This document shows positions 1 through 52,390 of a stretch of DNA of 64,000 nt, one piece after another. The position numbers and the translations under genes were made by a program. Within the stretch, counting starts at the first letter, position 1; each line of letters begins with the position of its first letter. The DNA comes from Anaerolineales bacterium (GTDB taxonomy: Bacteria > Chloroflexota > Anaerolineae > Anaerolineales > UBA4823): NCBI GenBank assembly GCA_025057645.1, contig JANXBJ010000005.1, positions 73,676 through 137,675 of the forward strand, read 5' to 3'. The notes under the pieces are model-generated. The model was not told where the DNA came from. It ran no database searches and was given only the letters and a program-made list of their open reading frames with translations.

Positions 1-918
1 AATCCGCCAGACCTTTGTTTTTCGTTGCAATTGAGTCCTCCCTCCGAGGGCGAAATTCAAATTTGGAGACCACAGAAACCTTTCTCGGAGACCGAGAAGC
101 GTTTTCTGCAAATCTTCATTTCTCAAGCCGGTCTGGCGTTAGAACGCCTGCGCTTGAGGCATGCTGAGATTCAAGCCAAAATCTTAGCCGAGAGCGATCG
201 TCTGAAGGCATCGCTGCTCTCGTCTGTATCGCACGAACTGCGCACGCCATTGGCAGCGATCAAGGCTGCTATCTCAAGCTTGAACAGCCCGAGCGTCGAA
301 TTGGATACAGACAGTCGCAAGGAATTGATGGCGATGATCGAAGAAGAAACCGATCACCTGAATCTTCTGGTCGGCAATCTGCTGAATATGTCTAGGTTAG
401 AAGCCGGAGCACTCACCCTCGAGCGTTCGTGGAGCCGTTTAGAGGACATCGTGCGCAGCGCAACGGAGAGGACGCGCGTTTACTCGAAAGACCATCAGGT
501 TGTCGTTCAATTCCCGCCCGGATTGCCCGATCTCTATGTAGATTATCTGCTGATGGAACAGGTCTTGATCAACTTGATTAACAACAGCCTCAAACACTCG
601 CCGGCGGGGAGTAAAGTGGAAATTGTTGTGTTTCCGCCGGAGACTGACCAAGTGAGAGTCGAGGTGCGCAACCAGAGCCCGGCGATTCCGCCCGAATATC
701 TGGAACGCATCTTCGATAAGTTCTTTCGCTTAGAACAACCCCAGCGGGTGCGCGGCATAGGGCTTGGGTTGGCTATTTGCAAAGGGATTATTGAAGCCCA
801 CGGAGGAAAAATTTGGGCAGAGAATCGAGAGCGGGGCATTGCTTTCGTTTTCACTGTACCTTTACAGAGCAACGCAGTGGTTTCTGAAGTGGTTCAGCTA
901 AAAGAGGGCGAGCTTTGA
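1..918 (+). CDS. kdpD: Sensor histidine kinase, C-terminal portion (KdpD-like); 5' end lies outside the window
   Basis: The frame is open from nt 1, with no stop before the listed ORF at 25. H-box SVSHELRTPLAAIKAAI, N-box LINLINNSLKHSP and G-box GIGLGLAICKGIIEAHGG are present. The stop overlaps the TTG start of the KdpE-like regulator (TTGA at 915-918). Confidence 0.8.
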   Translation, partial: NPPDLCFSLQLSPPSEGEIQIWRPQKPFSETEKRFLQIFISQAGLALERLRLRHAEIQAKILAESDRLKASLLSSVSHELRTPLAAIKAAISSLNSPSVELDTDSRKELMAMIEEETDHLNLLVGNLLNMSRLEAGALTLERSWSRLEDIVRSATERTRVYSKDHQVVVQFPPGLPDLYVDYLLMEQVLINLINNSLKHSPAGSKVEIVVFPPETDQVRVEVRNQSPAIPPEYLERIFDKFFRLEQPQRVRGIGLGLAICKGIIEAHGGKIWAENRERGIAFVFTVPLQSNAVVSEVVQLKEGEL

Positions 919-1607
919 ATCCAGAAGTTCATATTCTCGTCATTGATGATGAACCTCAAATCCGTCGCGCCCTGCGCACGATTCTGGCGGCGCATCACTT
1001 TCGAGTGAGTCTGGCGAGCAGCGGCGAAGAAGGCTTGGCGTTGGCAGCCAGCTTACAGCCCGATTTGATCATCCTCGACCTCGGTTTGCCGGATCTGGAT
1101 GGGATTGAGGTGTGTCGGCGATTGCGGGAATGGAGCCAAGTTCCCATTATCGTCCTTTCGGTGCGAGATAGCGAACGGGATAAGGTGATTGCCCTCGATC
1201 GCGGCGCCGATGACTATTTGACCAAGCCGTTTGGGATCGAGGAATTGTTAGCCCGCATTCGCGTTGCCTTACGCCATGCTGCTCAATCGCCCAGAGAGGG
1301 CACAAAAGTGGTGCGCAGCGGTGATGTAGTGATCGACCTCGTCAATCATCGGGTTACCCGGCGGGGTGAGGAAGTTCGGCTAACCTCAACCGAATATAGG
1401 TTGCTGGCTTACCTTGCCCGCCATGCCGGAAAAGTGCTCTCACACCGCACCATCCTTGCCAATGTCTGGGACCCTGCCGATGCCGATCGCCTTGAATACC
1501 TGCGAGTCTACATTCGACAGTTGAGGAAAAAGCTGGAAGAAGACCCCGAAAATCCCAAGATCATCGTCAACGAACCTGGAATCGGCTATCGCCTTTACGC
1601 CGAGTGA
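915..1607 (+). CDS. kdpE: OmpR-family response regulator, KdpE-like
   Basis: Receiver domain (ILVIDDE, DLIILDLGLPDLDG, KPF) plus winged-helix output. The C-terminal block YLRVYIRQLRKKLEEDPENPKIIVNEPGIGYRL closely resembles E. coli KdpE as I remember it. Confidence 0.8.
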   Translation: MNPEVHILVIDDEPQIRRALRTILAAHHFRVSLASSGEEGLALAASLQPDLIILDLGLPDLDGIEVCRRLREWSQVPIIVLSVRDSERDKVIALDRGADDYLTKPFGIEELLARIRVALRHAAQSPREGTKVVRSGDVVIDLVNHRVTRRGEEVRLTSTEYRLLAYLARHAGKVLSHRTILANVWDPADADRLEYLRVYIRQLRKKLEEDPENPKIIVNEPGIGYRLYAE

Positions 1608-1786
1608 ATTTTTATTCTTTTTTTATCCCCTCTCTTCCCCTCTTTATTCATTCTTAATTCCTTTGCGCTATAAGCAGCTAGGATGCAGATCATCCAGACG
1701 GGTTCTCCCTTTTTGAGGGGCCGACGTTTTATCGATTCGAAAGAGTTAGTAAACAAGTTCTCTTCAGTTGATAGAAAGAAGGCGAG

Positions 1787-2881: not shown

Positions 2882-2905
2882 AACTATATAAACGAGGTAG
2901 GAAAG

Positions 2906-30651: not shown

Positions 30652-32535
30652 CTAATCCTCCTTTCCCAGATAAGCCTCGATGACGCGGGGGTTCTGATAG
30701 ATTTCGGAGGGCAATCCTTCGGCGATCTTCGAGCCCATGTCCATCACCGTCACCCAATCCGAGATGCCCATGACCACGTTCATGTCATGCTCAATCAAAA
30801 AGAGCGTGAGGCCCTCGGCCACAAGAGTTTTGAGGAACTCCATCAGCTCTTCTGTTTCCTTCTCGTTTAGCCCCGAGGAGGGCTCGTCAAGGACAAGCAA
30901 GCTCGGGTTGGTGGCTAGCGCCCGCGCAATTTCCAGCAAACGCTGCTTTCCGTAGGGTAGGTTTTTCGCCAGCTCGTTGCGAAATTCCCACAGCCCGACC
31001 TGATGTAGGCGATAGGAAGCAATTTCTAGGATTTGCCGCTCTTCCCGCTGTTGGTGTGGCGTTCGGAAAATCGAGGCCCACGTGCCGCTCCGAGCATGAC
31101 AGTGCGGTCCGGACATCACATTCTCGATGCAGGTCAAGGAGGGGAAGAGGCGAATATTCTGAAAGGTACGGGCAATTCCCTTGCTGACCACTGCGTGGGG
31201 CTTGAGGTTGGTGATATCCTCTCCCCTAAAGATCACCTTGCCGGCGGTGGGGCGATAAATGCCGGTGATCACGTTGAAAAGGGTGGTTTTCCCGGCGCCG
31301 TTCGGCCCGATCAAAGCAGTGATCTGACCGGCACGAATCTGAAGGTCAAACGCATTGACCGCCACCAGCCCACCGAATTGCATGGTCAGGTTTTGAGTTT
31401 CCAACACTACGCCGTTTGTCGCCGGCGCCGGGTTAGCCCTGAGCGTTGTCAGGGTCTTGCCTTCGCTTGACTTTTGGACCACTCCCACGATGAAGATGTT
31501 TTCGTCTTCAGGCACGCCCCCGATTCCTAAACTGTGGAGGCCTATCCCTTCGCGGCGGCGGGGCAAGATGCCTCCCGGACGGAAGATCATCATCATCACC
31601 AAAGCTGCACCAAAGAAGAGCAAGCGGTAGCTGGCGAACTGGCGGAAGATTTCCGGAAAGACCACAATGATCGCTGCGCCCAAAATATTGCCGGGAATCG
31701 ACCCTAATCCCCCGAGCAAAACGATCACGAAGAAGAGGGCTGAGTCCATGAAAGTGAAGTTTGCAGGGGAGATGATCATCATCTTCGAAGCGTAGATGTT
31801 CCCCGCCAAACCGGCCAGCGCAGCCCCCGAGACAAAGGCGATCAGCTTATAGTAACGCACATCTATGCCGTTGGCTTCGGCAGCGATTTCATCTTCGCGG
31901 ATGAAGTTCCAGGCCCGTCCGACACGCGACCGCTGCAGATTGACTAAACCGAGGATCACCAAGGCGACAATAATCCATACATAGAAATAAAACTCAGTCG
32001 GAGTGCGCAGGGCGAAAAGTCCGAAGTCCGGATTGCCGATGCCGGTGATCCCATTGGCGCCATTGGTCAAGCCGAAAGGGTTGTTCAAGGCGGCTAGGCG
32101 GACGATCTCGCCGATGCCAATTGTGACGATGCACAGGTAATCTCCGCGCAAGTGAATGATGGGGGAAGTAACCAAATAGGCGAACAGTCCTGCCGCCAAG
32201 GCGCTTAGAGGCAACAGCACTACGATGGGAATATTCCAGCGAGTGTAAAGGATTGCGGTGGTATACGCGCCAATGGCATAAAAAGCCGCATGCCCTAAAT
32301 CAAACAGTCCAACTTCACCTAAGACAATGTTCAAGCTCAGCCCCAGCAGGACATAGATTCCTACAAAGAAGCCTACGTCGATCCAGTAGTTATTGACGAA
32401 AGGCAGGAAAGGATAGACAAGCAGCAAGAGAATGATCAGACCAACCCAAAGCTTTGTTGAGCGTGCTGAGCGCACTCTGCCTTCTTGCTGCGCCTTCCAT
32501 AAGCGTTGGGTGAGTTTCTTGGTAAGGTCGATCAT
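30652..32535 (-). CDS. Fused LivM-like permease + LivG-like ATPase
   Basis: The N-terminal roughly 330 aa are polytopic and LivM-like (GHAAFYAIGAYT). The C-terminal half is an ABC ATPase (GPNGAGKTTLFN, LPYGKQRLLEIARAL, LVLDEPSSGL). Confidence 0.85.
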   Translation of the reverse strand: MIDLTKKLTQRLWKAQQEGRVRSARSTKLWVGLIILLLLVYPFLPFVNNYWIDVGFFVGIYVLLGLSLNIVLGEVGLFDLGHAAFYAIGAYTTAILYTRWNIPIVVLLPLSALAAGLFAYLVTSPIIHLRGDYLCIVTIGIGEIVRLAALNNPFGLTNGANGITGIGNPDFGLFALRTPTEFYFYVWIIVALVILGLVNLQRSRVGRAWNFIREDEIAAEANGIDVRYYKLIAFVSGAALAGLAGNIYASKMMIISPANFTFMDSALFFVIVLLGGLGSIPGNILGAAIIVVFPEIFRQFASYRLLFFGAALVMMMIFRPGGILPRRREGIGLHSLGIGGVPEDENIFIVGVVQKSSEGKTLTTLRANPAPATNGVVLETQNLTMQFGGLVAVNAFDLQIRAGQITALIGPNGAGKTTLFNVITGIYRPTAGKVIFRGEDITNLKPHAVVSKGIARTFQNIRLFPSLTCIENVMSGPHCHARSGTWASIFRTPHQQREERQILEIASYRLHQVGLWEFRNELAKNLPYGKQRLLEIARALATNPSLLVLDEPSSGLNEKETEELMEFLKTLVAEGLTLFLIEHDMNVVMGISDWVTVMDMGSKIAEGLPSEIYQNPRVIEAYLGKED

Positions 32536-32538
32536 CCC

Positions 32539-33453
32539 TTATACTTTTTCGGCTACTTTTTCTCCGATCAGTCCGGTGGGACGCACGATAAGAATGACAA
32601 TCAGAATGAGAAACACAAACACGTTCTTCCATGCCCCGGAGACAAACCCCTCAAAGAGCGATTCGAGCAGGCCGAGCAGCAGGCCCCCGACCATTGCTCC
32701 GGGGATGTTGCCGATGCCTCCGATAATGGTGGCGGTGAAGGCCTTGAGTCCGTATCCCCATCCCATATTAAAAATGATGCGGCTGTAGTTCAAGCCGGCG
32801 AACACTCCTGCTAGAGCACCAAGAGCCGGACCAACCGAGAAGACAAAGAGAATAATGGAACGGAAGTTGATCCCCATCAGGGTAGCCGTCTCACGATCCA
32901 AAGCCGTAGCCCGAACCGCAGCTCCGAAAAGGGTCTTTTCGACAATGAAATAAATCACCGCCATTAGGGTCAGCGAAACCAGTAGGGTGACCAGTTTGAT
33001 GTCCGGGATATAAATCTCCCCAAACAGGCGCAGTGTGCCGGAGGGGATGCCGGTTTGGGGGTAGGCTTGAAAACGAGGGCCCCAAACGGCCATAATTCCG
33101 TTCGAGATAAAGATCGAAGCTCCCAACGCCGAAACCACTAAGGGCAGACGTCCGGCTTTATACACCGGGCGGTAAGCGACCCGTTCCACCAAGAGACCCC
33201 CCAAGGCCAACCCCAACATTGCCCCTAGAATGGCCAACGCAATTCCACCCCATAGACCGAAAGTGCGCGTTACCCAGCCAGAGCCGATCACCAGGATGGT
33301 ATAGCCCAGGTAGCTGCCCAAGGTGAAGAAATCGCCATGGGCAAAGTTGATCAGCTTCATCACCCCGTAGACCATAGAGTACCCCATGGCAACCAGCGCA
33401 TAGAAAGAGCCAATGGTCAAACCGTTGGTGAGCTGCTCGAGGAGCAATTGCAT
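32539..33453 (-). CDS. livH: LivH-like ABC permease
   Basis: MQLLLEQLTNGLTIGSFYALVAMGYSMVYGVMKLINFAHGD is the canonical LivH N-terminus. Confidence 0.85.
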   Translation of the reverse strand: MQLLLEQLTNGLTIGSFYALVAMGYSMVYGVMKLINFAHGDFFTLGSYLGYTILVIGSGWVTRTFGLWGGIALAILGAMLGLALGGLLVERVAYRPVYKAGRLPLVVSALGASIFISNGIMAVWGPRFQAYPQTGIPSGTLRLFGEIYIPDIKLVTLLVSLTLMAVIYFIVEKTLFGAAVRATALDRETATLMGINFRSIILFVFSVGPALGALAGVFAGLNYSRIIFNMGWGYGLKAFTATIIGGIGNIPGAMVGGLLLGLLESLFEGFVSGAWKNVFVFLILIVILIVRPTGLIGEKVAEKV

Positions 33454-41595: not shown

Positions 41596-41883
41596 ATGTT
41601 CAAAGCCATATGGAACGGTCAGGTGATCGCTGAAAGTGAACAAACGGTTTTGCTCGAGGGCAACCATTACTTTCCCGCCGAATCGGTTCGCAAGGAGTTC
41701 TTGCTCCCCAGTGATACTCATACCACCTGTCCATGGAAAGGCGTAGCCAGTTACTATCACATCAAGGTGGGCGATCAGATCAATCGCGACGCTGCTTGGT
41801 ATTACCCTGAACCGAGCGAAGCGGCTCAACAGATCAAGGGGCACATTGCCTTCTGGAAAGGGGTGCAAGTGGTCGAAAGCTAG
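41596..41883 (+). CDS. DUF427 domain protein
   Basis: MFKAIWNGQVIAES...NHYFP...CPWKGVASYYH...AAWYYPEP...IAFWKGV matches the DUF427 pattern. GGAGG lies upstream of the ATG at 41596. Confidence 0.75.
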   Translation: MFKAIWNGQVIAESEQTVLLEGNHYFPAESVRKEFLLPSDTHTTCPWKGVASYYHIKVGDQINRDAAWYYPEPSEAAQQIKGHIAFWKGVQVVES

Positions 41884-41884
41884 A

Positions 41885-43630
41885 ATGGCAAACTTCCACC
41901 GTTTCTCGAATCGCCAACTTGCCCAGATCTTTGAGCAGATTGCCGATCTCTCCGAAATCAAGGGCGAGGTAATCTATAAGGTGCTTGCCTATCGCAGGGC
42001 AGCCGAGTCCTTGGCGGAACTCAACCGCGAGGCGTTCGACATTTGGCAATCGGGGAAGCTGACCGAAATCCCAGGGGTGGGCAAGGCGATCGCCGAGAAA
42101 ATCGAAGAACTGTTCACCACCGGCAGGTTGGGTTTTTTAGAGAAGCTCACCGCTGAAGTACCGCCCAGCTTAGCGGAATTGCTGGCTGTGCCCGATCTGG
42201 GACCGAAGAAGATCGCCTTGTTCTGGAAGGAACTGGGGATTACCACCCTGGCCGAGCTAGAGGAGGCCGCTCGTACCGGTAAGCTGCGCACTTTGCCCGG
42301 GATGGGCGAGAAATCCGAAGCGCGCGTTCTAGCCGGCATCGAGGCTTATAAGCGCCGCTCGGAGCGCATTCCTATCGGGCGTGCCTATCCCTTTGCCCAA
42401 CGGTTGATCGCCCGCCTCCAAGCAATACCCGGTGTGCAGCGGGTTGAAATGGCCGGCAGCTTGCGCCGCGGTCGTTCCACTGTGGGCGATATCGATCTCT
42501 TAGCTGCAGCGGCGGACTCGAGTTCAGTGATGGAGGCCTTTCTCTCCGATCCGGAGGTGGTGCGGGTGACTGCCAGTGGGGAGACCAAGAGCAGTGTAGA
42601 ATACTCCCACGGCCTGCGCGCCCAGCTCTGGGTGCATCCCCCTGAGCGCTTCGGCACGGCTTGGCAATATGCTACCGGTTCCAAGGAGCACAACGTTCGT
42701 TTGCGGGAGCTGGCTCTTAAGCAGGGCTGGTCTCTATCCGAACACGCCCTGAGCCGCAAGGACGGAAGCGAAGTTCTCTGCAGCCAAGAGGAAGAGGTCT
42801 ATGCGGCTCTGGGATTGCCGTGGATTCCACCCGAGCTGCGCGAGGACCGCGGCGAAATCCAAGCCGCTTTGGAGGGAAAGCTACCACGTCTAATTCAACT
42901 AAGTGAGATTCGCAGTGAGCTTCATGCCCATACGACCTGGAGTGATGGCAAGCTCACCATCGCCGAGCTGGCCGAAGCGGCCCGCAAGCGAGGCCTAGAG
43001 GTGCTGGTGATTAGCGATCACTCGGCCAGCTTGGCGATCACCGGGGGTCTGACGGCGGAGGCAGCGCTAGAACAACGGCGTGAAATCCAGAGGGTGCAAG
43101 AACAACTGGGCGACTCAATTCGCTTGCTCCACGGGATCGAGGTCGAAATCCGCGCCGATGGCAGCTTGGACTTCCCCGATGAAGTGCTGGCCGGCTTCGA
43201 TCTTGTCACCGCCTCGATGCACACTGCTTTGCGTCAACCCCGTCAGCAAGTCACCGAGCGGTTGCTCAAGGTGCTCCGCAATCCCCATGTCGATATCCTC
43301 GGTCACCCCACTGGAAGAATGTTCCCCAACCGGGAAGGGGCAGACTTGGACATGGAAGCCGTTCTGCGCGCTGCACGAGAGCACAACGTGGTTTTAGAGA
43401 TTAATGCTCATCCCTCGCGCTTGGACTTGGACGATCTCTATGCCCGTCGCTACGCTGAAATGGGCGGCTTATTGGCGATCAATACCGATGCTCACGCTGA
43501 GAGCGATTTCGACCTGTTGCACTTTGGCGTCACGATTGCCCGGCGCGCCTGGGTTGAGGCCGAGTCGGTTATCAACACTTGGCCTCTTGCACGTTTGTTA
43601 GCATGGTTGGGAGCGCGGCATAAGGGTTGA
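41885..43630 (+). CDS. polX: DNA polymerase X family protein with C-terminal PHP domain
   Basis: N-terminal HhH region (NRQLAQIFEQIADL, IPGVGKAIAEKI, LPGMGEKS), the polymerase core GSLRRGRSTVGDIDLL, and PHP motifs ELHAHTTWSDG and INTDAH. The ATG lies 1 nt after the DUF427 stop. Confidence 0.9.
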   Translation: MANFHRFSNRQLAQIFEQIADLSEIKGEVIYKVLAYRRAAESLAELNREAFDIWQSGKLTEIPGVGKAIAEKIEELFTTGRLGFLEKLTAEVPPSLAELLAVPDLGPKKIALFWKELGITTLAELEEAARTGKLRTLPGMGEKSEARVLAGIEAYKRRSERIPIGRAYPFAQRLIARLQAIPGVQRVEMAGSLRRGRSTVGDIDLLAAAADSSSVMEAFLSDPEVVRVTASGETKSSVEYSHGLRAQLWVHPPERFGTAWQYATGSKEHNVRLRELALKQGWSLSEHALSRKDGSEVLCSQEEEVYAALGLPWIPPELREDRGEIQAALEGKLPRLIQLSEIRSELHAHTTWSDGKLTIAELAEAARKRGLEVLVISDHSASLAITGGLTAEAALEQRREIQRVQEQLGDSIRLLHGIEVEIRADGSLDFPDEVLAGFDLVTASMHTALRQPRQQVTERLLKVLRNPHVDILGHPTGRMFPNREGADLDMEAVLRAAREHNVVLEINAHPSRLDLDDLYARRYAEMGGLLAINTDAHAESDFDLLHFGVTIARRAWVEAESVINTWPLARLLAWLGARHKG

Positions 43631-43635
43631 TGTTC

Positions 43636-44313
43636 CTAGCCGGGTGCGCCGAATAGCTTCGCCAATTGCCCAATCTGTTGGGTATGGGCAATGGCGATCA
43701 CCTCATCATAGGGTTGAAAAACTGTCTCCCCTTTAGGGATGATCAACTGATCGTTGCGGAAGATGCCGACCAAGGTGCAGTCCTTGGGGAATTGGATTTC
43801 TTTAACTGCTTTTTGAACCACCAAGGCTTGTGGGTCAACCCGTTCCTCTACGATTGAATATTCCCCGCTGCGCAAGCGCAGGAGGATCATCATATCTCCT
43901 AGGGACATCTCTTCAACAATCAGTTTGGCCATGATGTCGGTTTGATCCACGGCGATGTCCACTCCCATCTCTTGATTGAACAACCAAGCGTTCTTAGGAT
44001 TATTCACGCGGGCAATCGTCCTAGGGACGTGGAACTCGAAGCGTCCGAGGGTGGTAATCACCAAGTTGGTTTCGTCTTCTCCAGTAACCGCTGCGAGGAC
44101 ATTGGCTTCGCGGATGCCTGCCTTTTCGAGCATGCTTGGAGAGCTGCCATCACCTAGTAGAACCACCTCAGGCTCGAGCTCGCGTCGCAGACGTTCAACG
44201 ATGGTTGGCCGATTTTCGATCAGGCACACTCGATGTCCAAGTTGAAGCAAATGTCCGGCCAAAAAAGAGCCGGTCTTGCCTCCACCAACGATGATCACAA
44301 ACATTCTCAACAC
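43636..44313 (-). CDS. TrkA/KtrA-type RCK protein (TrkA-N + TrkA-C)
   Basis: Rossmann motif IIVGGGKTGSFLAGHL and a C-terminal TrkA-C-like domain. 225 aa. Confidence 0.8.
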   Translation of the reverse strand: MLRMFVIIVGGGKTGSFLAGHLLQLGHRVCLIENRPTIVERLRRELEPEVVLLGDGSSPSMLEKAGIREANVLAAVTGEDETNLVITTLGRFEFHVPRTIARVNNPKNAWLFNQEMGVDIAVDQTDIMAKLIVEEMSLGDMMILLRLRSGEYSIVEERVDPQALVVQKAVKEIQFPKDCTLVGIFRNDQLIIPKGETVFQPYDEVIAIAHTQQIGQLAKLFGAPG

Positions 44314-44316
44314 TCC

Positions 44317-44973
44317 TTATGCGTAACCTATGAGTGCTTTCAAGCGCTCGAGTGCCGACGTGTGCACGGCGATATAGATCAGATCTCGGTTGCGGATTAT
44401 AGTGCCTTGGAGGGGGAGAATAGCTTGGCCTTGCCGAGAGATCGCAATGACATGAATTTCACCCGGCACGGTCAGGTCGCGCACCTGCTTTCTATCTAAG
44501 AGGGGAGAAGCTTCGAGGTTGACCAAAGCTACCTCCCCGCTGCCAAAGGTCATCATCGGCTCCAATTCTTGATAGGTCAGTAGCTCGCGCACCCGCTCGG
44601 CCCCGAGTGCGGTAGAGGAAAAGGTAAGCAAGCCGAGGCGGCGGTAAATTTCTGCCCGCCGCGGGTCATAAACGCTGGCTACCACCTTGGGCACGTGGAA
44701 GATATTGCGAGCGATGCGCGCAGCAATGATATTGGCGTTGTCGGAATTGCTGGTGGCAGCAAAGGCTTCGGCTCGTTCAATGCCCGCTTGGATCAGGACT
44801 TGGCGGTCGAAGCCTACTCCGAGGATCACTTTGCCGCCAAACCCCTGTCTCATCCGCTCCAGCGCTGCCTCATCCGTATCCACAACCGTCACATCGTGCC
44901 CTTCAGCGTCCATCAGCCGGGCAAACTGCTCGCCCACTCGGCCGCATCCCATTACGATAATTTTCATCCTCAA
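44317..44973 (-). CDS. TrkA/KtrA-type RCK protein (TrkA-N + TrkA-C)
   Basis: MKIIVMGCGRVGEQFARL Rossmann motif. 218 aa. A 3-nt gap separates it from the next RCK gene. Confidence 0.8.
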   Translation of the reverse strand: MRMKIIVMGCGRVGEQFARLMDAEGHDVTVVDTDEAALERMRQGFGGKVILGVGFDRQVLIQAGIERAEAFAATSNSDNANIIAARIARNIFHVPKVVASVYDPRRAEIYRRLGLLTFSSTALGAERVRELLTYQELEPMMTFGSGEVALVNLEASPLLDRKQVRDLTVPGEIHVIAISRQGQAILPLQGTIIRNRDLIYIAVHTSALERLKALIGYA

Positions 44974-44979
44974 TCCTCC

Positions 44980-47811
44980 TCAAAAGGACTCAGTCTCTGT
45001 CGGGCTTTCCCGACTGGTCTTCAACCACTGGAAGAAGTGGAGCAGTTGTTTGCGCACTCGATCGAAACCATAAAGGAGGGGACCGAACAGCGCAAGTGGG
45101 AACCAGTATTCGAGCGGCAAAGGCTGGTGATCGAACATCTCCGCCAGAGGCGGCACGTAGATTAAAGTTAATATTAATGCAATTTCCCCCAAAATGCCCA
45201 ACCAAATTAGCGGATTGGAGAACCATCCCACTTCACTGACCCGTAGGCGTTCCGAACGGCAGGCTAGAACATTGCCGACTTGGGCCATCACCACTCCGGC
45301 GTGAAACATGGTTACTGCTAAGACGTGAACGTGGGGCGGCACGGTGTGAAGCAGCTCCGGGAGAGCCCGCCCCGCAGCTAACAACTCATCCAAACGAATG
45401 TTGTAGGCTCGGGCGTAAATGTAGAAGAACCCTAGGTAGCACAGCGCCGTTTCGATCATCCCCAGCCAGGCAAAAGAGCGCATGAGAAGCGAGCGCTCGA
45501 TAAGCGGTAAGCCGCGCTTGCGAGGAGGACGACTCATGATATCCGGTTCGGGTTTCTCGGCCCCCAATGCCAGAGCCGGCAAAAGGTCGGTGCCCATGTC
45601 GATGGCCAAAATTTGGCGCACGGTCAGCGCTAGGGGAATCTGGAAAATTGCCGAGACCACAAAGGGCACTAACTCGGGCACGTTACTGGTGAAGATGTAG
45701 GTGATAAACTTGCGGATGTTGTCGTAAATAGCCCGTCCCTCTTGGATGGCGTCGACAATGGTGCTGAAGTTGTCTTGGGTCAAAATTACATCTGCAGCCT
45801 CGCGGGCAACATCGGTGCCGATAATGCCCATTGCTACACCCACATCGGCCTTGCGCAAAGCCGGAGCGTCGTTGACGCCATCGCCGGTGACCGCAACCAC
45901 TTCACCTTTGGCCTGCAGGGCTGCCACAAGGCGCAGTTTATGCTCCGGCGCCATGCGTGCATAGATGACCTCCTTCTCCAGGAGGTTCTGCAATTGCACA
46001 TCGTTCATCTCTTCTAGCTCGGCTCCGGTCACAATCATCGGATTAGGCGTGCTTAACATCCCGATGCGCCGAGCAATGCTTTCTGCGGTCAGGCCGTAGT
46101 CGCCGGTTACCATAATGATGCGAATACCTGCCTGACGACAGATTTCCACTGCGCGGGCAACCTCAGGCCGAGGGGGATCATGCATGGCCATCAAACCCAA
46201 AAAGATCAACTCGCATTCCACATTTTGTTCGGCGTAGCTGCTCCGCGGAGGCAACAGGCGGTAGGCAAAAGCTAGGACGCGCAAAGCGTTACGAGCATAA
46301 TCGTCATTGGCGGCGAGAATCTGGTTGCGAGTCGAGTCCTCCAACTGCAGGACTTGGTTGTTGCATTGCCAGAAACGGCACAAGTGCAACACCTCGCGCG
46401 GTGCGCCTTTGACAAAAGCAATTTCTTCCTGACCCCAGCGGTGAATGGTGGTCATGCGTTTGCGCCGTGCTTCGAAGGGAATCTCGTGCAATCGAGGGTA
46501 TTGACTGAGAACCTCCTCTTCGGAGAGCCCTCCCTTACGGGCGACCACTCGTAGCGCAGCCTCGGTCGAATCGCCAAGCGCTGACCAATAGGGATGATCT
46601 GCAGTAGGCGGAATCAAACGCGAGTTGTTGCACAGGGTGGCGGCGGTCAACAGAAGTTCCAGCTCAGACTCTAGGTTTAGGGAGCGAGGGTCTGGGGTGA
46701 TTTCCCCCTGAGGTTCGTAGCCAATTCCGCTCACGCTGAGCTTCTTGCCACCCACCCAAATCTCGCGGACGGTCATCTGGTTTTGGGTGAGCGTCCCACT
46801 CTTATCGGTGCAGATGACTGAGATGTTTCCCAGCGTCTCCACCATCGCCAGCTTCTTGACCAAGACACCGCGCTGCGCTAGGCGCTGCACAGCCATAGCC
46901 AGTGAAAGCGAGAGAGTGGCCGGCAAGCCTTCGGGAACAACAGCCACTAAAATTCCCAAGGCAAAGATGAACGCTTGCACCAACCGATCCTGAGGGTCGA
47001 ATAATTCGACTTCCGGATCGAAGGCACCAACTAGAAAGACAACTATGCCAATTCCCAAACCAATAACTGATAAGCGACGGGTGAGATGAATGATCTCCTG
47101 CTGAAGCGCTGAGGGTTGTTCACTGACCCTTCCGGTCAGATGGGCGATGCGTCCGAATTGGGTGAGCATCCCGGTAGCGTAGACCACGGCTTTTGCGGTG
47201 CCGCTGAACACAGAAGTGCCGGCAAAGACCAGGTTAGGCCGCTCCAGTTCGCTAATCCCCTCGCGCAGGGAAGCATCAGAGGTCTTGCGCGCCGGCATGG
47301 CTTCTCCGGTGAGTATGGCTTGGTTAACACGCAGGCCATACTCCTGCACCACCCGGGCGTCGGCGGGGATATTATCGCCCTCGGCGAGGATGAGAATATC
47401 TCCCGGAACGATTTCCGGCGTGGGCACGAGGATTTCCCGACCTTCACGCAGCACGCGGCTATAGGAAGGCAAGATCTCTTTCAAACCGGCAACGGCCACC
47501 GTAGCGCGATACTCCCGCCAAAAAGAAAAAGCCGCATTGACAAGAATCACCGACCAGATAACAAGAGCAAGGCTAATTTCGCCGACAATCAAAGCCAAGA
47601 TGCCCGCAACCCATAAGAGGATAGCCATGGGGTGGACGATATGCACCAGAAATTTGCTCCACCAGGGCGGTGGCGTCGGCTCTTGAATCACATTTCTTCC
47701 GTAGAGCGACAGACGCTCTGCTACCTGCTCCGCAGTAAGCCCCTGCGGAGAGGTTTCCAGAGCGCTGTAGACCTCCGTAGCGCGTAAACGGTAAATCGGT
47801 TGTGAGGTCAT
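44980..47811 (-). CDS. Type II cation-transporting P-type ATPase
   Basis: N-terminal cation-ATPase domain (GLTAEQVAERLSLYGRNVI), TGEA, PEGLPATLS, ICTDKSGTLTQN and VTGDGVNDAPAL. The start overlaps the stop of the KimA-like gene (47808-47811). Confidence 0.9.
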   Translation of the reverse strand: MTSQPIYRLRATEVYSALETSPQGLTAEQVAERLSLYGRNVIQEPTPPPWWSKFLVHIVHPMAILLWVAGILALIVGEISLALVIWSVILVNAAFSFWREYRATVAVAGLKEILPSYSRVLREGREILVPTPEIVPGDILILAEGDNIPADARVVQEYGLRVNQAILTGEAMPARKTSDASLREGISELERPNLVFAGTSVFSGTAKAVVYATGMLTQFGRIAHLTGRVSEQPSALQQEIIHLTRRLSVIGLGIGIVVFLVGAFDPEVELFDPQDRLVQAFIFALGILVAVVPEGLPATLSLSLAMAVQRLAQRGVLVKKLAMVETLGNISVICTDKSGTLTQNQMTVREIWVGGKKLSVSGIGYEPQGEITPDPRSLNLESELELLLTAATLCNNSRLIPPTADHPYWSALGDSTEAALRVVARKGGLSEEEVLSQYPRLHEIPFEARRKRMTTIHRWGQEEIAFVKGAPREVLHLCRFWQCNNQVLQLEDSTRNQILAANDDYARNALRVLAFAYRLLPPRSSYAEQNVECELIFLGLMAMHDPPRPEVARAVEICRQAGIRIIMVTGDYGLTAESIARRIGMLSTPNPMIVTGAELEEMNDVQLQNLLEKEVIYARMAPEHKLRLVAALQAKGEVVAVTGDGVNDAPALRKADVGVAMGIIGTDVAREAADVILTQDNFSTIVDAIQEGRAIYDNIRKFITYIFTSNVPELVPFVVSAIFQIPLALTVRQILAIDMGTDLLPALALGAEKPEPDIMSRPPRKRGLPLIERSLLMRSFAWLGMIETALCYLGFFYIYARAYNIRLDELLAAGRALPELLHTVPPHVHVLAVTMFHAGVVMAQVGNVLACRSERLRVSEVGWFSNPLIWLGILGEIALILTLIYVPPLAEMFDHQPLPLEYWFPLALFGPLLYGFDRVRKQLLHFFQWLKTSRESPTETESF

Positions 47812-49625
47812 GAGGGTGGGTTAGCGGAAGGCTCTTCCTTAGCGGGTGGCGTCTGGGGGTTGGAAGCTGGATTTTGGCTGAGATAAGGTTCGAGGTAGGA
47901 GTGGCGCGTATGACCGACTTCTACAGCCTCTTCAAATTCGCCTGCGGCTATAGGCGGTTCGAAGCGAACCGGACGACGAACCCCAAAAAGCTCCCAGAAT
48001 TTAGCGATAGCGATCAGTAACTGATAGCGGTATTCTTGCACTTTGAGCGATTGCCACTCGACGATAGCTCCCATCGGACCCTCGACGCGGGATTTTACGC
48101 GCACGATCCGGTAAATCTGGTCGGGGTCGCGATAGCCGATGGGAGAAATCAGAATTGCATGAGCCATGAGGACGACCAGGATTAATACAATCAGTACCAA
48201 CCAACCGCCTTCAAACCATTTCCCGGCGATTTGGCCGACAAAGACAAACGAGGAAAGCGCAATGGAGAAGTTAACGCCGAGGAGGGCGAGGGTGCGTTTT
48301 CGACCTGTCTCGTGCAGTTGCACGTGGCGGCGCATGGCAAGCCCCATGGCAGTAATGGGCAAGAACACCCCAACGCCGTAGTAAGGCACTGCGTGACCTG
48401 TGTCCCCCCGCACCAGAAATTGGATGATCACAGCGGCGATAAAGGCGGCCGTCACCGGGCGGGTGAAGGTGCCTTTCGGGTTGCGATAGACTACGATTTC
48501 GGGAATCTCGCCGATAGCCACATTGCGCCAAGTAACGGATTGCATGTCCTGATAGGCGGTCATAGAGGCGGCCGAGAGCAGAGCGACGGCAAGGAACTGG
48601 TAGAACCAGTAGAGGATAATCCCTCCGGGGAATTGATCGAAGCCGATGTAGGCCAGATTACCGACCAGCGTGCGCCCAAAAGTGCCGTCAAAGACGTTGA
48701 AGCGCAGTGAGAAGATCGTTAGGAATAGGGTCGTCAGTCCACCGTAGAACAGAAAAGCAGTCTGAACCGTCCTGCCGATGCCCGATTTACCGCTGTAAAA
48801 ATTCCACAGCCAATTTAACCGGGGCAGGTGCTTCTTCCCCCACCGAATCAGAGCATAATCTTCGTCAATCACAAATTGCATGCCGTTGGACATTGCCTCC
48901 AACCCGGTTAGAGCCACCATTCCCTTCATGCTCGCCGTCAGCATGTGGTATAGCGCTTGCGCAAGCGTTGTCGGTTGAGGAGGCTCAGAGGGTGCAGGGG
49001 GCACGCCCCTGAGGTGGGCGAGGATCAGACCTACGGACATAGTCAATGTCAGGCCGGCAAACAAGCCGAGGAGTGTGAAGACAACCTGGGCCGACTCGCC
49101 CCGGCCGCGGATGGTCAGATACCAGGTTGTGAATGCCAAGGCGGCCCCGATGAGGAAGTGCCAGAACCAGTTGACATTGTATGCTCCGATAATCGAGAGC
49201 AACTGATCGCTCCCGGAGAGCGTAGAAACAACGATGGTCAGGACGTAGTCTTGGACCAGAACAACGGCGACGATCAAACTCAGCGAGGGACCTAAATAGC
49301 GCATTGCGGCCGTGAACGCCCCCCCTCCTTCATTGAACACCCCTAGTGAATACATATATAACGCACCAAAGACAAAGTTGGCTAGCGCGATAACGGCCAC
49401 ACAAATGAAAGCATACTTCTCTAGGCCGTAGGGATGCAAAGCATGCATCATTTCGCCGGTAGCATAGTAGTAGGAAGTAAAGTAGTCTACCCCGAAGAGA
49501 GCTAAGGCTGCAAGCATCCCCACTTGGCCTGCGCCGTGCACCAAAGCATCCTCTTGGCGTTCGCGCGGGGCGAGGCGATAGGAGACAAAGAAAAGGACGA
49601 TCAGTAAGCCAATGGCGAACAACAT
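47808..49625 (-). CDS. Polytopic APC-superfamily transporter, KimA-like (putative K+/cation transporter), copy 2
   Basis: 605 aa, collinear with 2906..4687. In an ungapped hand alignment, 72 of the first 100 residues are identical. The same FNEGGG, LTGLEAMSNG, AIGEIPEIVVYRN, VPYYG.GVF.PITAMGLA and ELFGVRRPVRFEPP blocks are present. Confidence 0.6.
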   Translation of the reverse strand: MLFAIGLLIVLFFVSYRLAPRERQEDALVHGAGQVGMLAALALFGVDYFTSYYYATGEMMHALHPYGLEKYAFICVAVIALANFVFGALYMYSLGVFNEGGGAFTAAMRYLGPSLSLIVAVVLVQDYVLTIVVSTLSGSDQLLSIIGAYNVNWFWHFLIGAALAFTTWYLTIRGRGESAQVVFTLLGLFAGLTLTMSVGLILAHLRGVPPAPSEPPQPTTLAQALYHMLTASMKGMVALTGLEAMSNGMQFVIDEDYALIRWGKKHLPRLNWLWNFYSGKSGIGRTVQTAFLFYGGLTTLFLTIFSLRFNVFDGTFGRTLVGNLAYIGFDQFPGGIILYWFYQFLAVALLSAASMTAYQDMQSVTWRNVAIGEIPEIVVYRNPKGTFTRPVTAAFIAAVIIQFLVRGDTGHAVPYYGVGVFLPITAMGLAMRRHVQLHETGRKRTLALLGVNFSIALSSFVFVGQIAGKWFEGGWLVLIVLILVVLMAHAILISPIGYRDPDQIYRIVRVKSRVEGPMGAIVEWQSLKVQEYRYQLLIAIAKFWELFGVRRPVRFEPPIAAGEFEEAVEVGHTRHSYLEPYLSQNPASNPQTPPAKEEPSANPPS

Positions 49626-49660
49626 ATTAACTCAACCTCGGCGTATAGTCTTGGGGAGAA

Positions 49661-50812
49661 TTAGGGGCTTCGCAGGGAGAAGTTCAAGAAGGCTTCTTCA
49701 AGCATCTTGAGCTGCTTGATAATGTACTTGCGCGTGGTGGGGTTCAGGCGCGTGTCCTGAGCAACTTTGGCTTCTTCTTCGCGCACAGCCCGCACTACAA
49801 AGGCGGGGACAAACATGATCCGCCCCGCTGGGATGACCACGAAGGGATAGATCTTCATGGTCAAGTCCTGATCATCAAAATAGGGGAGGCGGATGGTCAA
49901 TCCGCGGTTCAGATTTTGGGCGCGTGCCCGCCTTTTGATCGTCTCGATGATTTGACGGGTTTGGTAGATCGCCAAGGCTCGCCCCTGGTTGACCAACTGG
50001 CCTAGCATGCCATAGCGTTTCTGTTGATAGACCTCGTCCACGATAATACACGGGGAAAAGGCGGCAGCATAGTGGAGCAAGCGCAGATAGCGCTGCATGG
50101 AAGCAATGTGTGATTCGGCCTCTTGGACGCTGGAGAGCAGTAACTCGCCGTTTTCGTCAAAAGCTACCCACTGAGGCAAGAAAAAGCGCCGTGCGTAGGG
50201 CACGAAAGGAACGAGCAGCTCACCCCGCTCGGTTTCCTCGCTTCTCTCCTCTGCAATGGCGTCGGTTGGGGCTGTCAAGGCCGACTCGACCTGTTCCTCC
50301 TCAACCGGAATGCTGGGGATTGTTTCCCCTTCTTCGGCAAGATAGTGCACCGAGCGGCCGGCGGGCAACAAATTATAGACGATGTGCACGGCAGTAGTAT
50401 GACGCAACAGACGTGAAGCTTCTCGGATGCCTTGATTTTCGCTTTGCTCAAGCTCGGTCAAACGCTGTTTGGCTAACACCCGTAACTCGATGCGACGCAG
50501 ACGGGTCGCCCATCCGCCAATGCGGTATTCACGTTGTTCCGGTGGAATGCTCACCGTCTGAAAACCGTCAGCCGGGGCAGGGACGAGCACTCGATCCGGG
50601 AGCATGAAGCGCGCTTCAGGGACATTGGCGATTATGGCATCGGCCAGACTCGCAGCTTGAGACTCAATGAAGCGTTGGACCATCAGGGGTTGGGCTGCAA
50701 AGAGCTGACGAACTTCTTCCAACTCGCATTGTAAAGGTTCGGTCAACTCTGCAGGAGGCTGGAGGAGCGAGCTCGCTTCCTGAACAGAAACTCGGCTGGC
50801 TGGCTCGGGCAT
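49661..50812 (-). CDS. Hypothetical soluble protein, partner of the KimA-like transporter (copy 2); paralog of 1787..2881
   Basis: 383 aa with no TM. It shares collinear blocks with 1787..2881. AAGGAAG SD lies upstream of the ATG. It is the first gene of a five-gene minus-strand operon. Confidence 0.7.
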   Translation of the reverse strand: MPEPASRVSVQEASSLLQPPAELTEPLQCELEEVRQLFAAQPLMVQRFIESQAASLADAIIANVPEARFMLPDRVLVPAPADGFQTVSIPPEQREYRIGGWATRLRRIELRVLAKQRLTELEQSENQGIREASRLLRHTTAVHIVYNLLPAGRSVHYLAEEGETIPSIPVEEEQVESALTAPTDAIAEERSEETERGELLVPFVPYARRFFLPQWVAFDENGELLLSSVQEAESHIASMQRYLRLLHYAAAFSPCIIVDEVYQQKRYGMLGQLVNQGRALAIYQTRQIIETIKRRARAQNLNRGLTIRLPYFDDQDLTMKIYPFVVIPAGRIMFVPAFVVRAVREEEAKVAQDTRLNPTTRKYIIKQLKMLEEAFLNFSLRSP

Positions 50813-50843
50813 AAGCGCTTCCTTATATGGGAAAACTAACGTT

Positions 50844-50852
50844 TATTCTATC
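50844..50852 (-). promoter_or_regulatory. Extended -10 promoter candidate (TGaTAGAAT)
   Basis: The minus strand reads TGATAGAAT, about 32 nt upstream of the ATG at 50812. Confidence 0.35.
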
Positions 50853-51062
50853 ACAATATACTTGCCTTCCGTCTCCCAAATTTTCGATCCCGTCCGCCCC
50901 CCTGCTTTGGAAAAAGGTGAGGGATACGGATGCTGTGCTTGGCCGATAAGGGTCTGCGCTATGCAAGTCGGTCGATCGTGTCTTTACTCGGCTATGGCTT
51001 GCCCCTCATTTCGCTCTTCCGAAGAGTTAACGGGAGAAAGCGGCGCAACAGACCTTAAGACC

Positions 51063-51088
51063 TGCGGGCAGGCATATGCGCCCGCCCG
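51063..51088. terminator. GC-rich hairpin, possible terminator after osmC
   Basis: GCGGGC (51063-51068) pairs with GCCCGC (51083-51088) around a GCATATGC palindrome. A T-rich run follows on the plus strand only. It lies about 85 nt downstream of the osmC stop. Confidence 0.3.
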
Positions 51089-51173
51089 CTGCCTTGTTTA
51101 TGTAGTGAATAGGATGTATCGCTAAGGGTCCGGAGTCACCGGCTATTCGGAGCCGACGGACGGATTGGGCTCT

Positions 51174-51572
51174 TCACGCCGGTTGGACCACTTGGGTATA
51201 TACCTCGAATTTGGGGGGTTGCTCCATGTGCTTCTTGACCGCACACAGCTCGGCCGCCCGTACTAGGGAGTCGCGATACTTTTCCGGGAATGTGGGAGGA
51301 ACTTGAATCTCTAAGTCGATTTTGCCTACCATCCCTGTGAAGGGATTGGTGTGCATGCGCTGAACGATGCGAATGCCCTCGGTGGACAGGCCACGCTGGC
51401 GGCAGAAGCCCAGCACATAAATCCCCGCGCAAGTGCCGATAGAGGCTAGAAACGTCGCAAAAGGGGTCGGAGCCGTGGCCGAAGGGGGTTGGTCCGTCCT
51501 TACTGTAAACTTGCCAAAATGCGCATCCACTCGCTCCCCACCGGGGAAATCGATGATCATTTCCATAGTCAA
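51174..51572 (-). CDS. OsmC/Ohr-family protein
   Basis: 132 aa. The PFATFLASIGTCAGIYV and AELCAVKKH Cys-containing blocks are typical of the OsmC fold. Confidence 0.7.
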   Translation of the reverse strand: MTMEMIIDFPGGERVDAHFGKFTVRTDQPPSATAPTPFATFLASIGTCAGIYVLGFCRQRGLSTEGIRIVQRMHTNPFTGMVGKIDLEIQVPPTFPEKYRDSLVRAAELCAVKKHMEQPPKFEVYTQVVQPA

Positions 51573-51784
51573 CCTCCGTGAGCAGAATTCACTCTAAACT
51601 CTCTTAGGGTGATCGCACTGTTGATTGGATGCGGTAGCTCTGGAAAGGTTACAGTGTTCTTGGCCTTGATGGGGGGACAAAAAGATTGGACGGGGAGTTC
51701 GGCGACCGGGACCCCGACCCCTAGAGCGGGTTGTGGAAGGAAAAGGACGCTTAAGGACACAAGGTTTTGTTGTAAAATTCAAGT

Positions 51785-52390
51785 ATGCGATCGTTAGTGG
51801 TACAGGCCGGCGGCGAGTCCAAGCGAATGGGCAGGGATAAAGCGCTGCTGCCCTTCCTAGGCAAGCCGCTGATCCAGCGCATCCTCGAGCGGCTGATCCC
51901 GGTCGTGGACGAGGCCCTGGTTACCACCAATCATCCGGAGAGATACGCTTTCCTAAACGTGCCTCTGGTTGAGGATATCTTTCCCGGTCGCGGGGCTTTA
52001 GGGGGGCTGTATACGGCTTTGCGCAGCGCGCACTATAGCCTTGTGGCCGTAGTGGCCTGTGATATGCCCTTTGCCAGCCCGGAGTTGCTCGAAGTTCTCT
52101 TTCGCGTCCTTGAGGAGAGCAAGACCGATGCTGTGATCCCTCAGACAGCCAGCGGCAACGAACCCTTCCATGCCGTCTATCGGCGGGAGAACTGCTTGCC
52201 GTTGGTGCGCCAAGCTTTGGAAGATGGCCATTGGCGCGCCGATGCATGGTTCTGGCAGGCTAATCTGCGCTTTTTTAGCCCTGAGGAGATCAGTATCTTC
52301 GATCCGTTGGGATTGGCCTTTCAAAACGTCAACACGCCGGAAGAGTTGGCTGCTGCCGAGGACCTGGCCCGCCAACTGGAACAGGGCTAA
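51785..52390 (+). CDS. mobA: Molybdenum cofactor guanylyltransferase
   Basis: LVVQAGGESKRMGRDKALLPFLGKPLI, then a VACDMPF block. Confidence 0.85.
   Translation: MRSLVVQAGGESKRMGRDKALLPFLGKPLIQRILERLIPVVDEALVTTNHPERYAFLNVPLVEDIFPGRGALGGLYTALRSAHYSLVAVVACDMPFASPELLEVLFRVLEESKTDAVIPQTASGNEPFHAVYRRENCLPLVRQALEDGHWRADAWFWQANLRFFSPEEISIFDPLGLAFQNVNTPEELAAAEDLARQLEQG

Follow-up and report, generated by a model that had tools for sequence, protein, structure and literature searches.

We analysed a stretch of 64,000 nucleotides (nt) from an Anaerolineales bacterium (contig JANXBJ010000005.1), referred to here as the window, and concentrated on five genes packed on its minus strand. The first encodes an orphan protein that we call U, and it is followed by genes for a KimA-like symporter, a P-type ATPase and two RCK proteins, R1 and R2 (Table 1). 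The spacings were 35 nt between U and the KimA-like gene, -4 nt between the KimA-like gene and the ATPase, where the start of the ATPase gene and the stop codon of the KimA-like gene share 4 nt (ATGA), 6 nt between the ATPase and R1, and 3 nt between R1 and R2. The open reading frame (ORF) list confirmed these coordinates and gaps, which a preliminary description made from the sequence alone had also given. R1 and R2 were listed with TTG and GTG starts, and an in-frame ATG lies 2-3 codons downstream; if the two proteins began there, the gaps before R1 and R2 would each grow to about 12 nt.

The same description placed the five genes behind a single extended -10 element. The motif TGaTAGAAT is present upstream of U, but a scan of positions 43300-51800 for sigma-70 promoters and intrinsic terminators gave nothing beyond shuffled controls, and we list the element as a candidate only. 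Because the scan was at chance level, the operon boundaries were drawn only from spacing and synteny. Convergent with the end of the cluster is a gene for a PolX-family DNA polymerase with a PHP domain (window 41846-43630, plus strand), and the same neighbour was seen in the closest relatives (L001, L002, and L100).

Table 1. Position and strand of the genes and sites discussed, numbered from the first letter of the window.
Feature	Position	Strand	Basis
U, 383-residue soluble orphan protein, first gene of the cluster	49661..50812	-	ORF list; no family match
KimA-like (KUP-family) K+/H+ symporter (predicted), divergent Anaerolineae subfamily, 605 residues	47808..49625	-	PDB match KimA 6s3k
P-type ATPase, P2C-like cation site, 943 residues	44980..47811	-	Pfam type II domains
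R1, RCK protein (TrkA_N+TrkA_C), 218 residues	44317..44973	-	Pfam
R2, RCK protein (TrkA_N+TrkA_C), 225 residues	43636..44313	-	Pfam
Extended -10 candidate TGaTAGAAT, upstream of U (32 nt from its start codon)	50845..50853	-	read in the sequence
KdpD-like histidine kinase, C-terminal part, cut by the window start	25..918	+	HisKA + HATPase_c
KdpE-like OmpR-family response regulator	915..1607	+	Response_reg + Trans_reg_C
KdpE-operator-like site TTTTTATTCTTTTTTTATCC	1609..1628	+	sole match in the window, 0 expected by chance
U paralogue, 364 residues	1787..2881	+	30% identity to the 383-residue U, E=5e-40; no Pfam match
KimA-like paralogue, 593 residues	2906..4687	+	69% identity to the 605-residue protein over the full length; no Pfam match

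Conservation of the gene order

The evidence for reading the cluster as a system is comparative genomics. A scan of one genome per species with the KimA-like protein returned 80 loci with 1.34 Mb of flanking sequence (genome loci). As the reciprocal test to this selection, a metagenome scan with the family-specific patterns DKSGTLTQ and M[IV]TGDYGL gave a set of ATPase-selected loci. Individual loci or contigs of the comparative set are given L-numbers (L001 and so on), and ATPases were split at 55% identity into a close clade (at least 55%) and a divergent clade (below 55%).

About 50 of the 80 genome loci had the order U, KimA-like, ATPase, R1, R2, at identities that went as low as 55-60%; a KdpDE-like pair often preceded it, and extra U or KimA-like copies sometimes did. 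All 50 ATPase orthologues of the KimA-like-selected loci came after a KimA-like gene, and R1 and R2 followed the ATPase in 42 of the 44 loci with enough flank. The median gaps in the genome loci were -4 nt (ATPase to R1) and 2 nt (R1 to R2). Among ATPase-selected metagenome loci with enough flank, R1 and R2 came next in 52 of 57. Those of the close clade showed R1 and R2 next in 41 of 44, and the gene directly upstream of the ATPase encoded the KimA-like protein in 37 cases, U in 5, and neither in 1. Those of the divergent clade showed R1 and R2 next in 11 of 13, with neither U nor a KimA-like gene upstream in 7 of the 10 loci with room for one. The arrangement was found again in dozens of genomes and metagenome contigs that are independent of one another, which is beyond chance, and its invariant unit is ATPase-R1-R2. 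The preliminary description had counted a linkage that is not conserved as evidence against a common module; the linkage proved to be conserved. U, proposed there as an additional component, recurs in the cluster among both KimA-like-selected and ATPase-selected loci.

Variants of the divergent clade were histidine kinase-response regulator-ATPase-R1 (L178) and ATPase-ATPase-R1-R2 (L169). At one divergent locus, where the contig shows ATPase-R1-R2, R1 and R2 clustered with the consecutive NCBI proteins MCX6697507 and MCX6697506, both labelled Methanoregula sp. On a relative contig of 32 kb, an ATPase of 939 residues overlaps R1 by 4 nt and R2 comes next; U and KimA-like genes are missing there, and an archaeal-type DUF2115 is encoded close by. 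Contigs attributed to Methanoregula (L179 and L180, also L176 and L177) carry ATPase-R1-R2 without U or KimA-like genes, and polyphosphate kinase and Ppx genes lie upstream.

The KimA-like gene also occurs without the ATPase. No ATPase orthologue was present in 10 of the 52 loci with at least 4.5 kb of flank past the last KimA-like gene, and the RCK pair was found in none of these 10. In a neighbour-joining analysis, the KimA-like copies adjacent to an ATPase formed no separate clade.

The ATPase and its RCK neighbours

The ATPase is of type II, as the preliminary description had proposed from its PEGL and DKSGT motifs, and it fits the architecture of that type with 10 transmembrane segments. 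Pfam returned five type II domains (with Cation_ATPase_N, E1-E2_ATPase, Hydrolase, and Cation_ATPase_C), and the protein carries PEGL at residue 293, DKSGT at residue 336 (with D336), TGEA, and GDGVNDAPAL. Over the whole chain, the best PDB matches were the Listeria Ca2+-ATPase LMCA1 and the Na,K-/H,K-ATPases, with similar scores. Over transmembrane segments (TM) 5-10, the best match was the Na,K-/H,K-ATPase alpha subunit (P2C) at 3e-55, ahead of SERCA at 4e-43 and LMCA1 at 7e-35. TM5 reads YIFTSNVPE in the ATPase and YTLTSNIPE in the Na,K-ATPase, TM6 reads IDMGTD and IDLGTD, respectively, and the TM8 glutamine Q844 corresponds to Q923. Thus TSNVPE, IDMGTD, and the TM8 glutamine reproduce the residues of the K+ site. 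Residue by residue, E294, S709, N710, E713, D738, D742, and Q844 correspond to Na,K-ATPase E327, S775, N776, E779, D804, D808, and Q923, while N847 stands in place of D926, the aspartate of the third Na+ site, and is Asn in nearly all members of the family.

Conservation was judged on 47 genome orthologues and about 77 metagenome orthologues. The cation-site residues were kept throughout, the divergent clade included, with rare single substitutions; DKSGT was invariant in the close clade, and DKTGT was present in most of the divergent clade. The score for TIGR01106 (ATPase-IIC_X-K) was 568 bits, below the cut-off of 946.1, and no other NCBIfam subfamily cut-off was reached. No beta-subunit-like gene was found in the cluster, which has no gene for a single-pass membrane protein and leaves no room for one in its gaps. 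The ATPase therefore differs from the Na,K-/H,K-ATPases in being prokaryotic, in having no beta subunit gene beside it, in carrying Asn for D926, DKSGT for DKTGT, and TGEA for TGES, and in being encoded with RCK proteins. The site residues indicate that its most likely activity is to bring K+ into the cell while Na+ or H+ is exchanged for it, and the loss of D926 suggests that it has no third Na+ site. A Ca2+-ATPase identity, taken from the best overall PDB match, was set aside as the leading reading on account of the TM6 aspartate and the resemblance of TM5-10 to K+ pumps.

R1 and R2 each contain TrkA_N and TrkA_C by Pfam, as the preliminary description had anticipated. The best full-length PDB match of R1 was to residues 1-213 of TrkA (4j9u, 2.7e-23), with KtrA reaching just 8.5e-6, and the best PDB match of R2 was to residues 235-437 of TrkA (6.8e-32). 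R1 thus corresponds to the N-terminal half of TrkA and R2 to the C-terminal half, and together they make up a split TrkA. The two are 27% identical to each other and, like the two halves of TrkA in the TrkAH system (V. parahaemolyticus/E. coli; 4j9u, 6v4j), both have the Rossmann GxGxxG motif, which is conserved in their orthologues (46 of 51 for R1). The nucleotide-gated octameric ring of TrkAH is the assembly that would be expected for R1 and R2. In contrast to TrkAH, the cluster has TrkA split over two genes, no TrkH in the operon or window, and a P-type ATPase as the conserved neighbour.

We searched for TrkH or KtrB by Pfam on the other multi-TM ORFs of the window and by tblastn with E. 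coli TrkH and Anaerolineae KtrB, and found neither, in agreement with the preliminary description. Two of these multi-TM ORFs were without a Pfam family: the second KimA-like copy and an ORF of 201 residues (23102-23707, plus strand) with about 7 predicted TM, which comes immediately behind the gene of a UbiA-family prenyltransferase. Around the genome loci, tblastn found no TrkH or KtrB in the flanks save one KtrB-like gene, that of L017, and no TrkH was found when ten representative multi-TM ORFs from these flanks were searched with Pfam. A candidate KtrB at L075 was rejected as a weak tblastn match with no real gene. TrkH-family genes are common in Anaerolineales, but all five Anaerolineae TrkH contexts examined had their own adjacent single RCK gene, and it was of a different, KtrA type. 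These TrkH-adjacent KtrA proteins are 56-77% identical among themselves, whereas R1 and R2 are about 20% identical to the KtrB-adjacent KtrA of Anaerolineae. TrkH/KtrB is thus not the conserved partner of the pair.

At L087 (1-8803), the order was histidine kinase, response regulator, U, KimA-like, KtrB, KtrA, with KtrB-KtrA in the slot of ATPase-R1-R2; the same was seen at L017, L088, and L089. One metagenome-assembled genome (MAG) holds both kinds of locus, U-KimA-like-KtrB at L017 and ATPase-R1-R2 at L060. The statement of the preliminary description that RCK proteins normally gate TrkH/KtrB-type channels holds for Trk and Ktr but is too narrow, since K+ channels and CPA2 antiporters (KhtTU and CpeAB, for example; PMC10117811) are likewise under RCK control. 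In KtrAB, KhtTU, and CpeAB, a cytoplasmic RCK protein that controls K+ flux is likewise encoded beside its membrane partner; these systems have a single RCK gene and a channel or antiporter as partner, in contrast to the two RCK genes and the pump here.

The closest relatives of the pair adjoin bona fide KimA. R1 is 39-43% and R2 50-53% identical to the pairs directly after KimA in L077 and L037, and the neighbour in L077 was identified as KimA at E=2e-136. Such adjacency was seen at L077 (1956-5233), L037 (16420-19759), L097 (2290-5651), and L096, which represent Anaerolineae, Nonomuraea, and Streptomyces. KimA and R1-R2 are divergently transcribed across 125 bp in Nonomuraea, and the arrangement in Streptomyces is similar. 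In S. venezuelae, the KimA-like Vnz_27465 and the RCK_C protein Vnz_27460 are consecutive by locus-tag numbering (PMC10117811). No P-type ATPase was linked to R1-R2 at the actinobacterial loci seen, and no RCK neighbour was found at five plasmid-borne KimA genes (Leptolinea, Chroococcidiopsis, Streptomyces, Rhodococcus, and Rhizobium). The KimA-RCK linkage is therefore recurrent, not general. The R1/R2-type pairs are an RCK class associated, by these gene neighbourhoods, with non-channel K+ transporters. The cyclic di-AMP (c-di-AMP) RCK_C signature (PMC10117811) matched neither R1 and R2 nor the KtrA of the lineage, and was hence uninformative.

A similar pair is known from M. tuberculosis, where the 'Trk system' is described as a pair of TrkA proteins, named CeoB and CeoC, with no membrane subunit named in the literature through 2026 (PMC13163235, PMC8358298). 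Like R1 and R2, they are the products of two adjacent TrkA-type genes of about 220 residues with no TrkH named, but, in contrast to the present cluster, the actinobacterial loci seen have no linked P-type ATPase. The membrane gene Rv2690c adjoins ceoB/ceoC and shares phenotypes with ceoB (PMC12216072). The adjacency of KimA and R1/R2-type pairs may identify Rv2690c as the missing membrane partner of CeoB and CeoC. Rv2690c itself is presumably KimA-like.

The KimA-like symporter, protein U and the second gene pair

The name KimA-like, used in the preliminary description for the 605-residue protein, was upheld, as its sole PDB sequence match was B. subtilis KimA (6s3k; phmmer, E=1.2e-17). No Pfam or NCBIfam model matched it, even at E<10, the Pfam models AA_permease_2 and K_trans included, and a few of its orthologues carry a precomputed PF13520 match. 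It is about 28% identical to bona fide KimA of the same lineage, to which hhalign aligned it with a probability of 99% over 415 columns, covering residues 34-489 only. The protein has about 10 predicted TM, and its transmembrane core is homologous to the 12-TM LeuT-type core of KimA (YdaO) of B. subtilis, a member of the KUP family (PMC6994465, PMC10284832). KimA D36, Y43, T121, and Y377 bind K+ or gate the transporter, and E233 couples it to H+ (PMC6994465). Residues D47, Y54, D126, T130, S134, E243, and Y416 of the KimA-like protein correspond to KimA D36, Y43, D117, T121, S125, E233, and Y377; all seven were thus kept, and all seven were invariant as judged on the columns of alignment A1.

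The KimA-type C-terminal domain that binds c-di-AMP was not found in the KimA-like protein, where alignments end at residue 489-491. In its place is a shorter, unrelated tail of 115 residues that could not be aligned to KimA residues 486-645. An AlphaFold2 model built from 12 close sequences was all-helical with a pLDDT of 51, too poor for a fold search. The sole Rfam match in the whole window was one tRNA, and no ydaO/c-di-AMP riboswitch was found by this search before the KimA-like genes. The protein also differs from B. subtilis KimA in matching no Pfam model and in being paired with the orphan U. Its homologues number in the thousands, nearly all of them unnamed or named 'hypothetical protein'.

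U had no match in Pfam or NCBIfam (even at E<10) or among PDB sequences. Its homologues number more than 3600, nearly all unnamed, and are called 'hypothetical protein' wherever a source gives a name; the few names among U and KimA-like homologues that include an organism point mostly to Anaerolineae/Chloroflexota MAGs. A profile search against 1.84 billion representatives returned 411 clusters at 50% identity, and no domain fusion was found in the best 150 of these 411, all of which were stand-alone proteins of at most 422 residues. By a crude count of hydropathy, U has at most one borderline hydrophobic stretch. The AlphaFold2 model (pLDDT 76.6, pTM 0.71) has an acidic disordered loop at 151-209, and Foldseek found no PDB match for it at E<=0.001. 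Both the U family and the Anaerolineae KimA-like subfamily are uncharacterised.

U was directly upstream of the KimA-like gene in 70 of 98 cases. In L130, L131, L137, L139, L149, L150, L152, and L156, the ATPase gene came straight after U, and the KimA-like gene was missing from between them. The KimA-like protein is therefore not a strict partner of U, which is probably an accessory or regulatory subunit of the KimA-like symporter or of the whole cluster.

A second U and KimA-like pair, together with a KdpDE-like system, lies at the start of the window (25-4687) and had been missed by the preliminary description. Neither ATPase nor RCK genes come after this KimA-like paralogue, the next gene, on the other strand, being that of an MFS transporter. 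The kinase has full-length orthologues in L050, L003, and L077, which contain DUF4118, HisKA, and HATPase_c, and their best NCBIfam match was the C-terminal half of KdpD. Among NCBIfam models, the regulator orthologue in L050 (93% identical) matched KdpE best, with 254.7 bits where the cut-off is 325. The site TTTTTATTCTTTTTTTATCC between the regulator and U genes is identical at 17 of 20 bases to TTTTTATACTTTTTTTACAC, the KdpE operator of E. coli, whose position 82 nt upstream of kdpF was verified. Among the genome loci, 13 of 16 KdpE-operator-like matches were directly upstream of U or KimA-like genes. This suggests that the KdpE operator is conserved between Proteobacteria and Chloroflexota.

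The KdpDE-like system was directly upstream of the cluster in many related loci, while in this genome it is 43 kb away. The U-KimA-like module was close to kdpA in L034, L044, L070, and L072, and was located between a response-regulator gene and a gene for a kinase of KdpD length in L048, L070, L072, and L079. In some loci without the ATPase, U-KimA-like was close to kdpA and was followed by the gene for a kinase of KdpD length and a second regulator gene. As in KdpFABC/KdpDE, a KdpD-like kinase and a KdpE-like regulator adjoin the module, and an ATP-driven K+ pump is the likely output. The differences from the Kdp system are that the pump here is a single-chain P2-type ATPase and not KdpB, KdpA, and KdpC, that the kinase is without the KdpD N-terminal and Usp domains, and that the five-gene cluster has no KdpE box of its own.

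Elsewhere in the window, an ORF of 627 residues (30652-32535, minus strand) encodes BPD_transp_2 (the permease domain of branched-chain amino-acid ABC transporters) and an ABC ATPase domain in one fused chain, and a separate permease gene adjoins it at 32539-33453.

Candidate functions and their alternatives

The cluster is best read, from its sequences and gene neighbourhoods, as a potassium-acquisition set typical of Anaerolineae (Chloroflexota). We give slightly better than even chances to an arrangement in which the pump and an R1/R2 ring form one regulated K+-uptake unit, U and the KimA-like symporter form a second, proton-coupled route, and in many genomes the set belongs to a KdpDE-type response to low K+. 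The analysis itself shows the gene identities, the site residues, the conserved synteny, the clade relationships of the RCK proteins and the operator match; which ions are carried, that R1 and R2 make a ring, that this ring binds the pump and what U does are inferred. In this arrangement, the ATPase with its Na,K-/H,K-like cation pocket would carry K+ in and Na+ or H+ out; it is translationally coupled to R1 and R2. R1 and R2 would build a hetero-octamer in the form of a TrkA-like ring, with ATP/ADP or NAD(H) as the bound nucleotide, and this ring may dock on the pump and switch it by the energy or K+ status of the cell, as TrkA does for TrkH. The presumably cytoplasmic U would act with the KimA-like K+/H+ symporter in the second route. 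The 4-nt ATPase/R1 overlap in relatives and the conservation of the triad from Chloroflexota to a MAG labelled Methanoregula argue for a dedicated pairing.

Several points weigh against this arrangement. The K+ specificity of the ATPase is read only from its site residues, its best overall PDB match is the Ca2+-ATPase LMCA1, it reached no NCBIfam subfamily cut-off, and it has neither an equivalent of D926 nor a beta-subunit-like gene beside it. The proposed contact of R1/R2 with the ATPase is drawn from synteny. No P-type ATPase under RCK control is known to us, and whereas the RCK rings known so far act on dimeric partners, most P-type ATPases are monomeric. The archaeal assignment of the divergent triad depends on a MAG label and one archaeal-type DUF. 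No KdpE-box-like site was found upstream of the five-gene cluster (50813-51173).

The closest relatives of R1 and R2, at L077 and L037 and in Nonomuraea and Streptomyces, adjoin bona fide KimA, which keeps a KimA-family partner in the cluster in play. The ring would then regulate the KimA-like symporter, or both symporter and pump, with the ATPase as a passenger inserted in this lineage; we consider this unlikely, though not negligibly so. It would agree with the identities of both RCK proteins to the KimA-adjacent pairs, with the same association in Actinomycetota (Nonomuraea, Streptomyces, and S. venezuelae Vnz_27465/Vnz_27460, PMC10117811), with the KimA-like gene being found before the ATPase in 37 of 43 Anaerolineae cases, and with a KimA-like protein that has lost the regulatory C-terminal domain of KimA. 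However, ATPase-R1-R2 occurs without a nearby KimA-like gene in the divergent clade and also as U-ATPase-R1-R2, none of the 10 U-KimA-like modules without the ATPase carries R1/R2, KimA-like copies next to an ATPase are not a clade of their own, and the five plasmid-borne KimA genes have no RCK neighbour. The preliminary description had suggested that the RCK proteins regulate a non-canonical partner. This agrees with relatives that adjoin bona fide KimA or the ATPase and not Trk, but the most conserved partner is the ATPase and not the KimA-like symporter, and regulation itself is deduced from gene order.

R1 and R2 could also be an ordinary split TrkA that gates a TrkH or KtrB encoded elsewhere and is located here through co-regulation of K+ uptake. 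Of all solved proteins, TrkA is by far the best match of both, Anaerolineales often carry TrkH-family genes, and the MAG with L017 and L060 holds a KtrB beside one locus and the triad at the other. In E. coli, trkA (encoding a fused TrkA) and trkH are unlinked; adjacency is thus not required, and a distant TrkH partner is conceivable. The chances of this explanation are small, given that the TrkH contexts of Anaerolineae that were examined (5/5) are already provided with an adjacent KtrA-type RCK gene, that the search of 1.34 Mb around the 80 loci found no TrkH other than the KtrB-like gene at L017, and that the ATPase/R1 overlap of 4 nt and the triad itself are kept across such distant lineages. 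Slightly smaller still are the chances that the genes encode independent transporters and soluble nucleotide-binding proteins that are merely co-expressed, with the ATPase perhaps a Ca2+ or Na+ efflux pump and with no RCK-transporter complex. The best overall PDB match to the Listeria Ca2+-ATPase and the failure of the ATPase to reach any NCBIfam equivalog cut-off would fit such a view. In contrast, the cation site matches K+-countertransporting pumps at 7 of 8 positions and has a TM6 aspartate unlike Ca2+ pumps, gene order and translational coupling are kept across very distant lineages, and the context is specific to K+ (KimA residues, KdpDE, and the KdpE box).

Each component of the cluster is from a known superfamily, and what seems to be new is the combination of a P-type ATPase with RCK proteins. 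In the open-access literature that we searched, no P-type ATPase is described as being encoded together with TrkA-type RCK proteins or as regulated by them, and literature searches on prokaryotic P2C pumps and on Anaerolineae Trk systems returned nothing relevant. We propose tentatively, at somewhat less than even chances, that ATPase, R1, and R2 are an unrecognised type of K+ pump, with a single-chain, Na,K-ATPase-like P-type ATPase, that is gated by a TrkA-like RCK ring and is distributed from Chloroflexota to methanogenic Archaea, that split-TrkA pairs, CeoB/CeoC included, regulate KimA/KUP symporters and P-type pumps and not TrkH, and that U is an accessory subunit with a novel fold.

If this is true, P-type ATPases would have a regulatory principle new to them, that of a TrkA-type ring controlling a primary pump, and studies of mechanism would gain a relative of the Na,K-/H,K-ATPases that is prokaryotic and works without a beta subunit. 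Pointing to KimA-family transporters and P-type pumps as the partners of split TrkA would give a testable answer to the puzzle of CeoB and CeoC. Two protein families with thousands of sequences each, U and the Anaerolineae KimA-like proteins, would be placed in K+ homeostasis. Sediments, hot springs, and wastewater systems harbour Anaerolineae in abundance, and the cluster is therefore probably a major route of K+ uptake in such communities.

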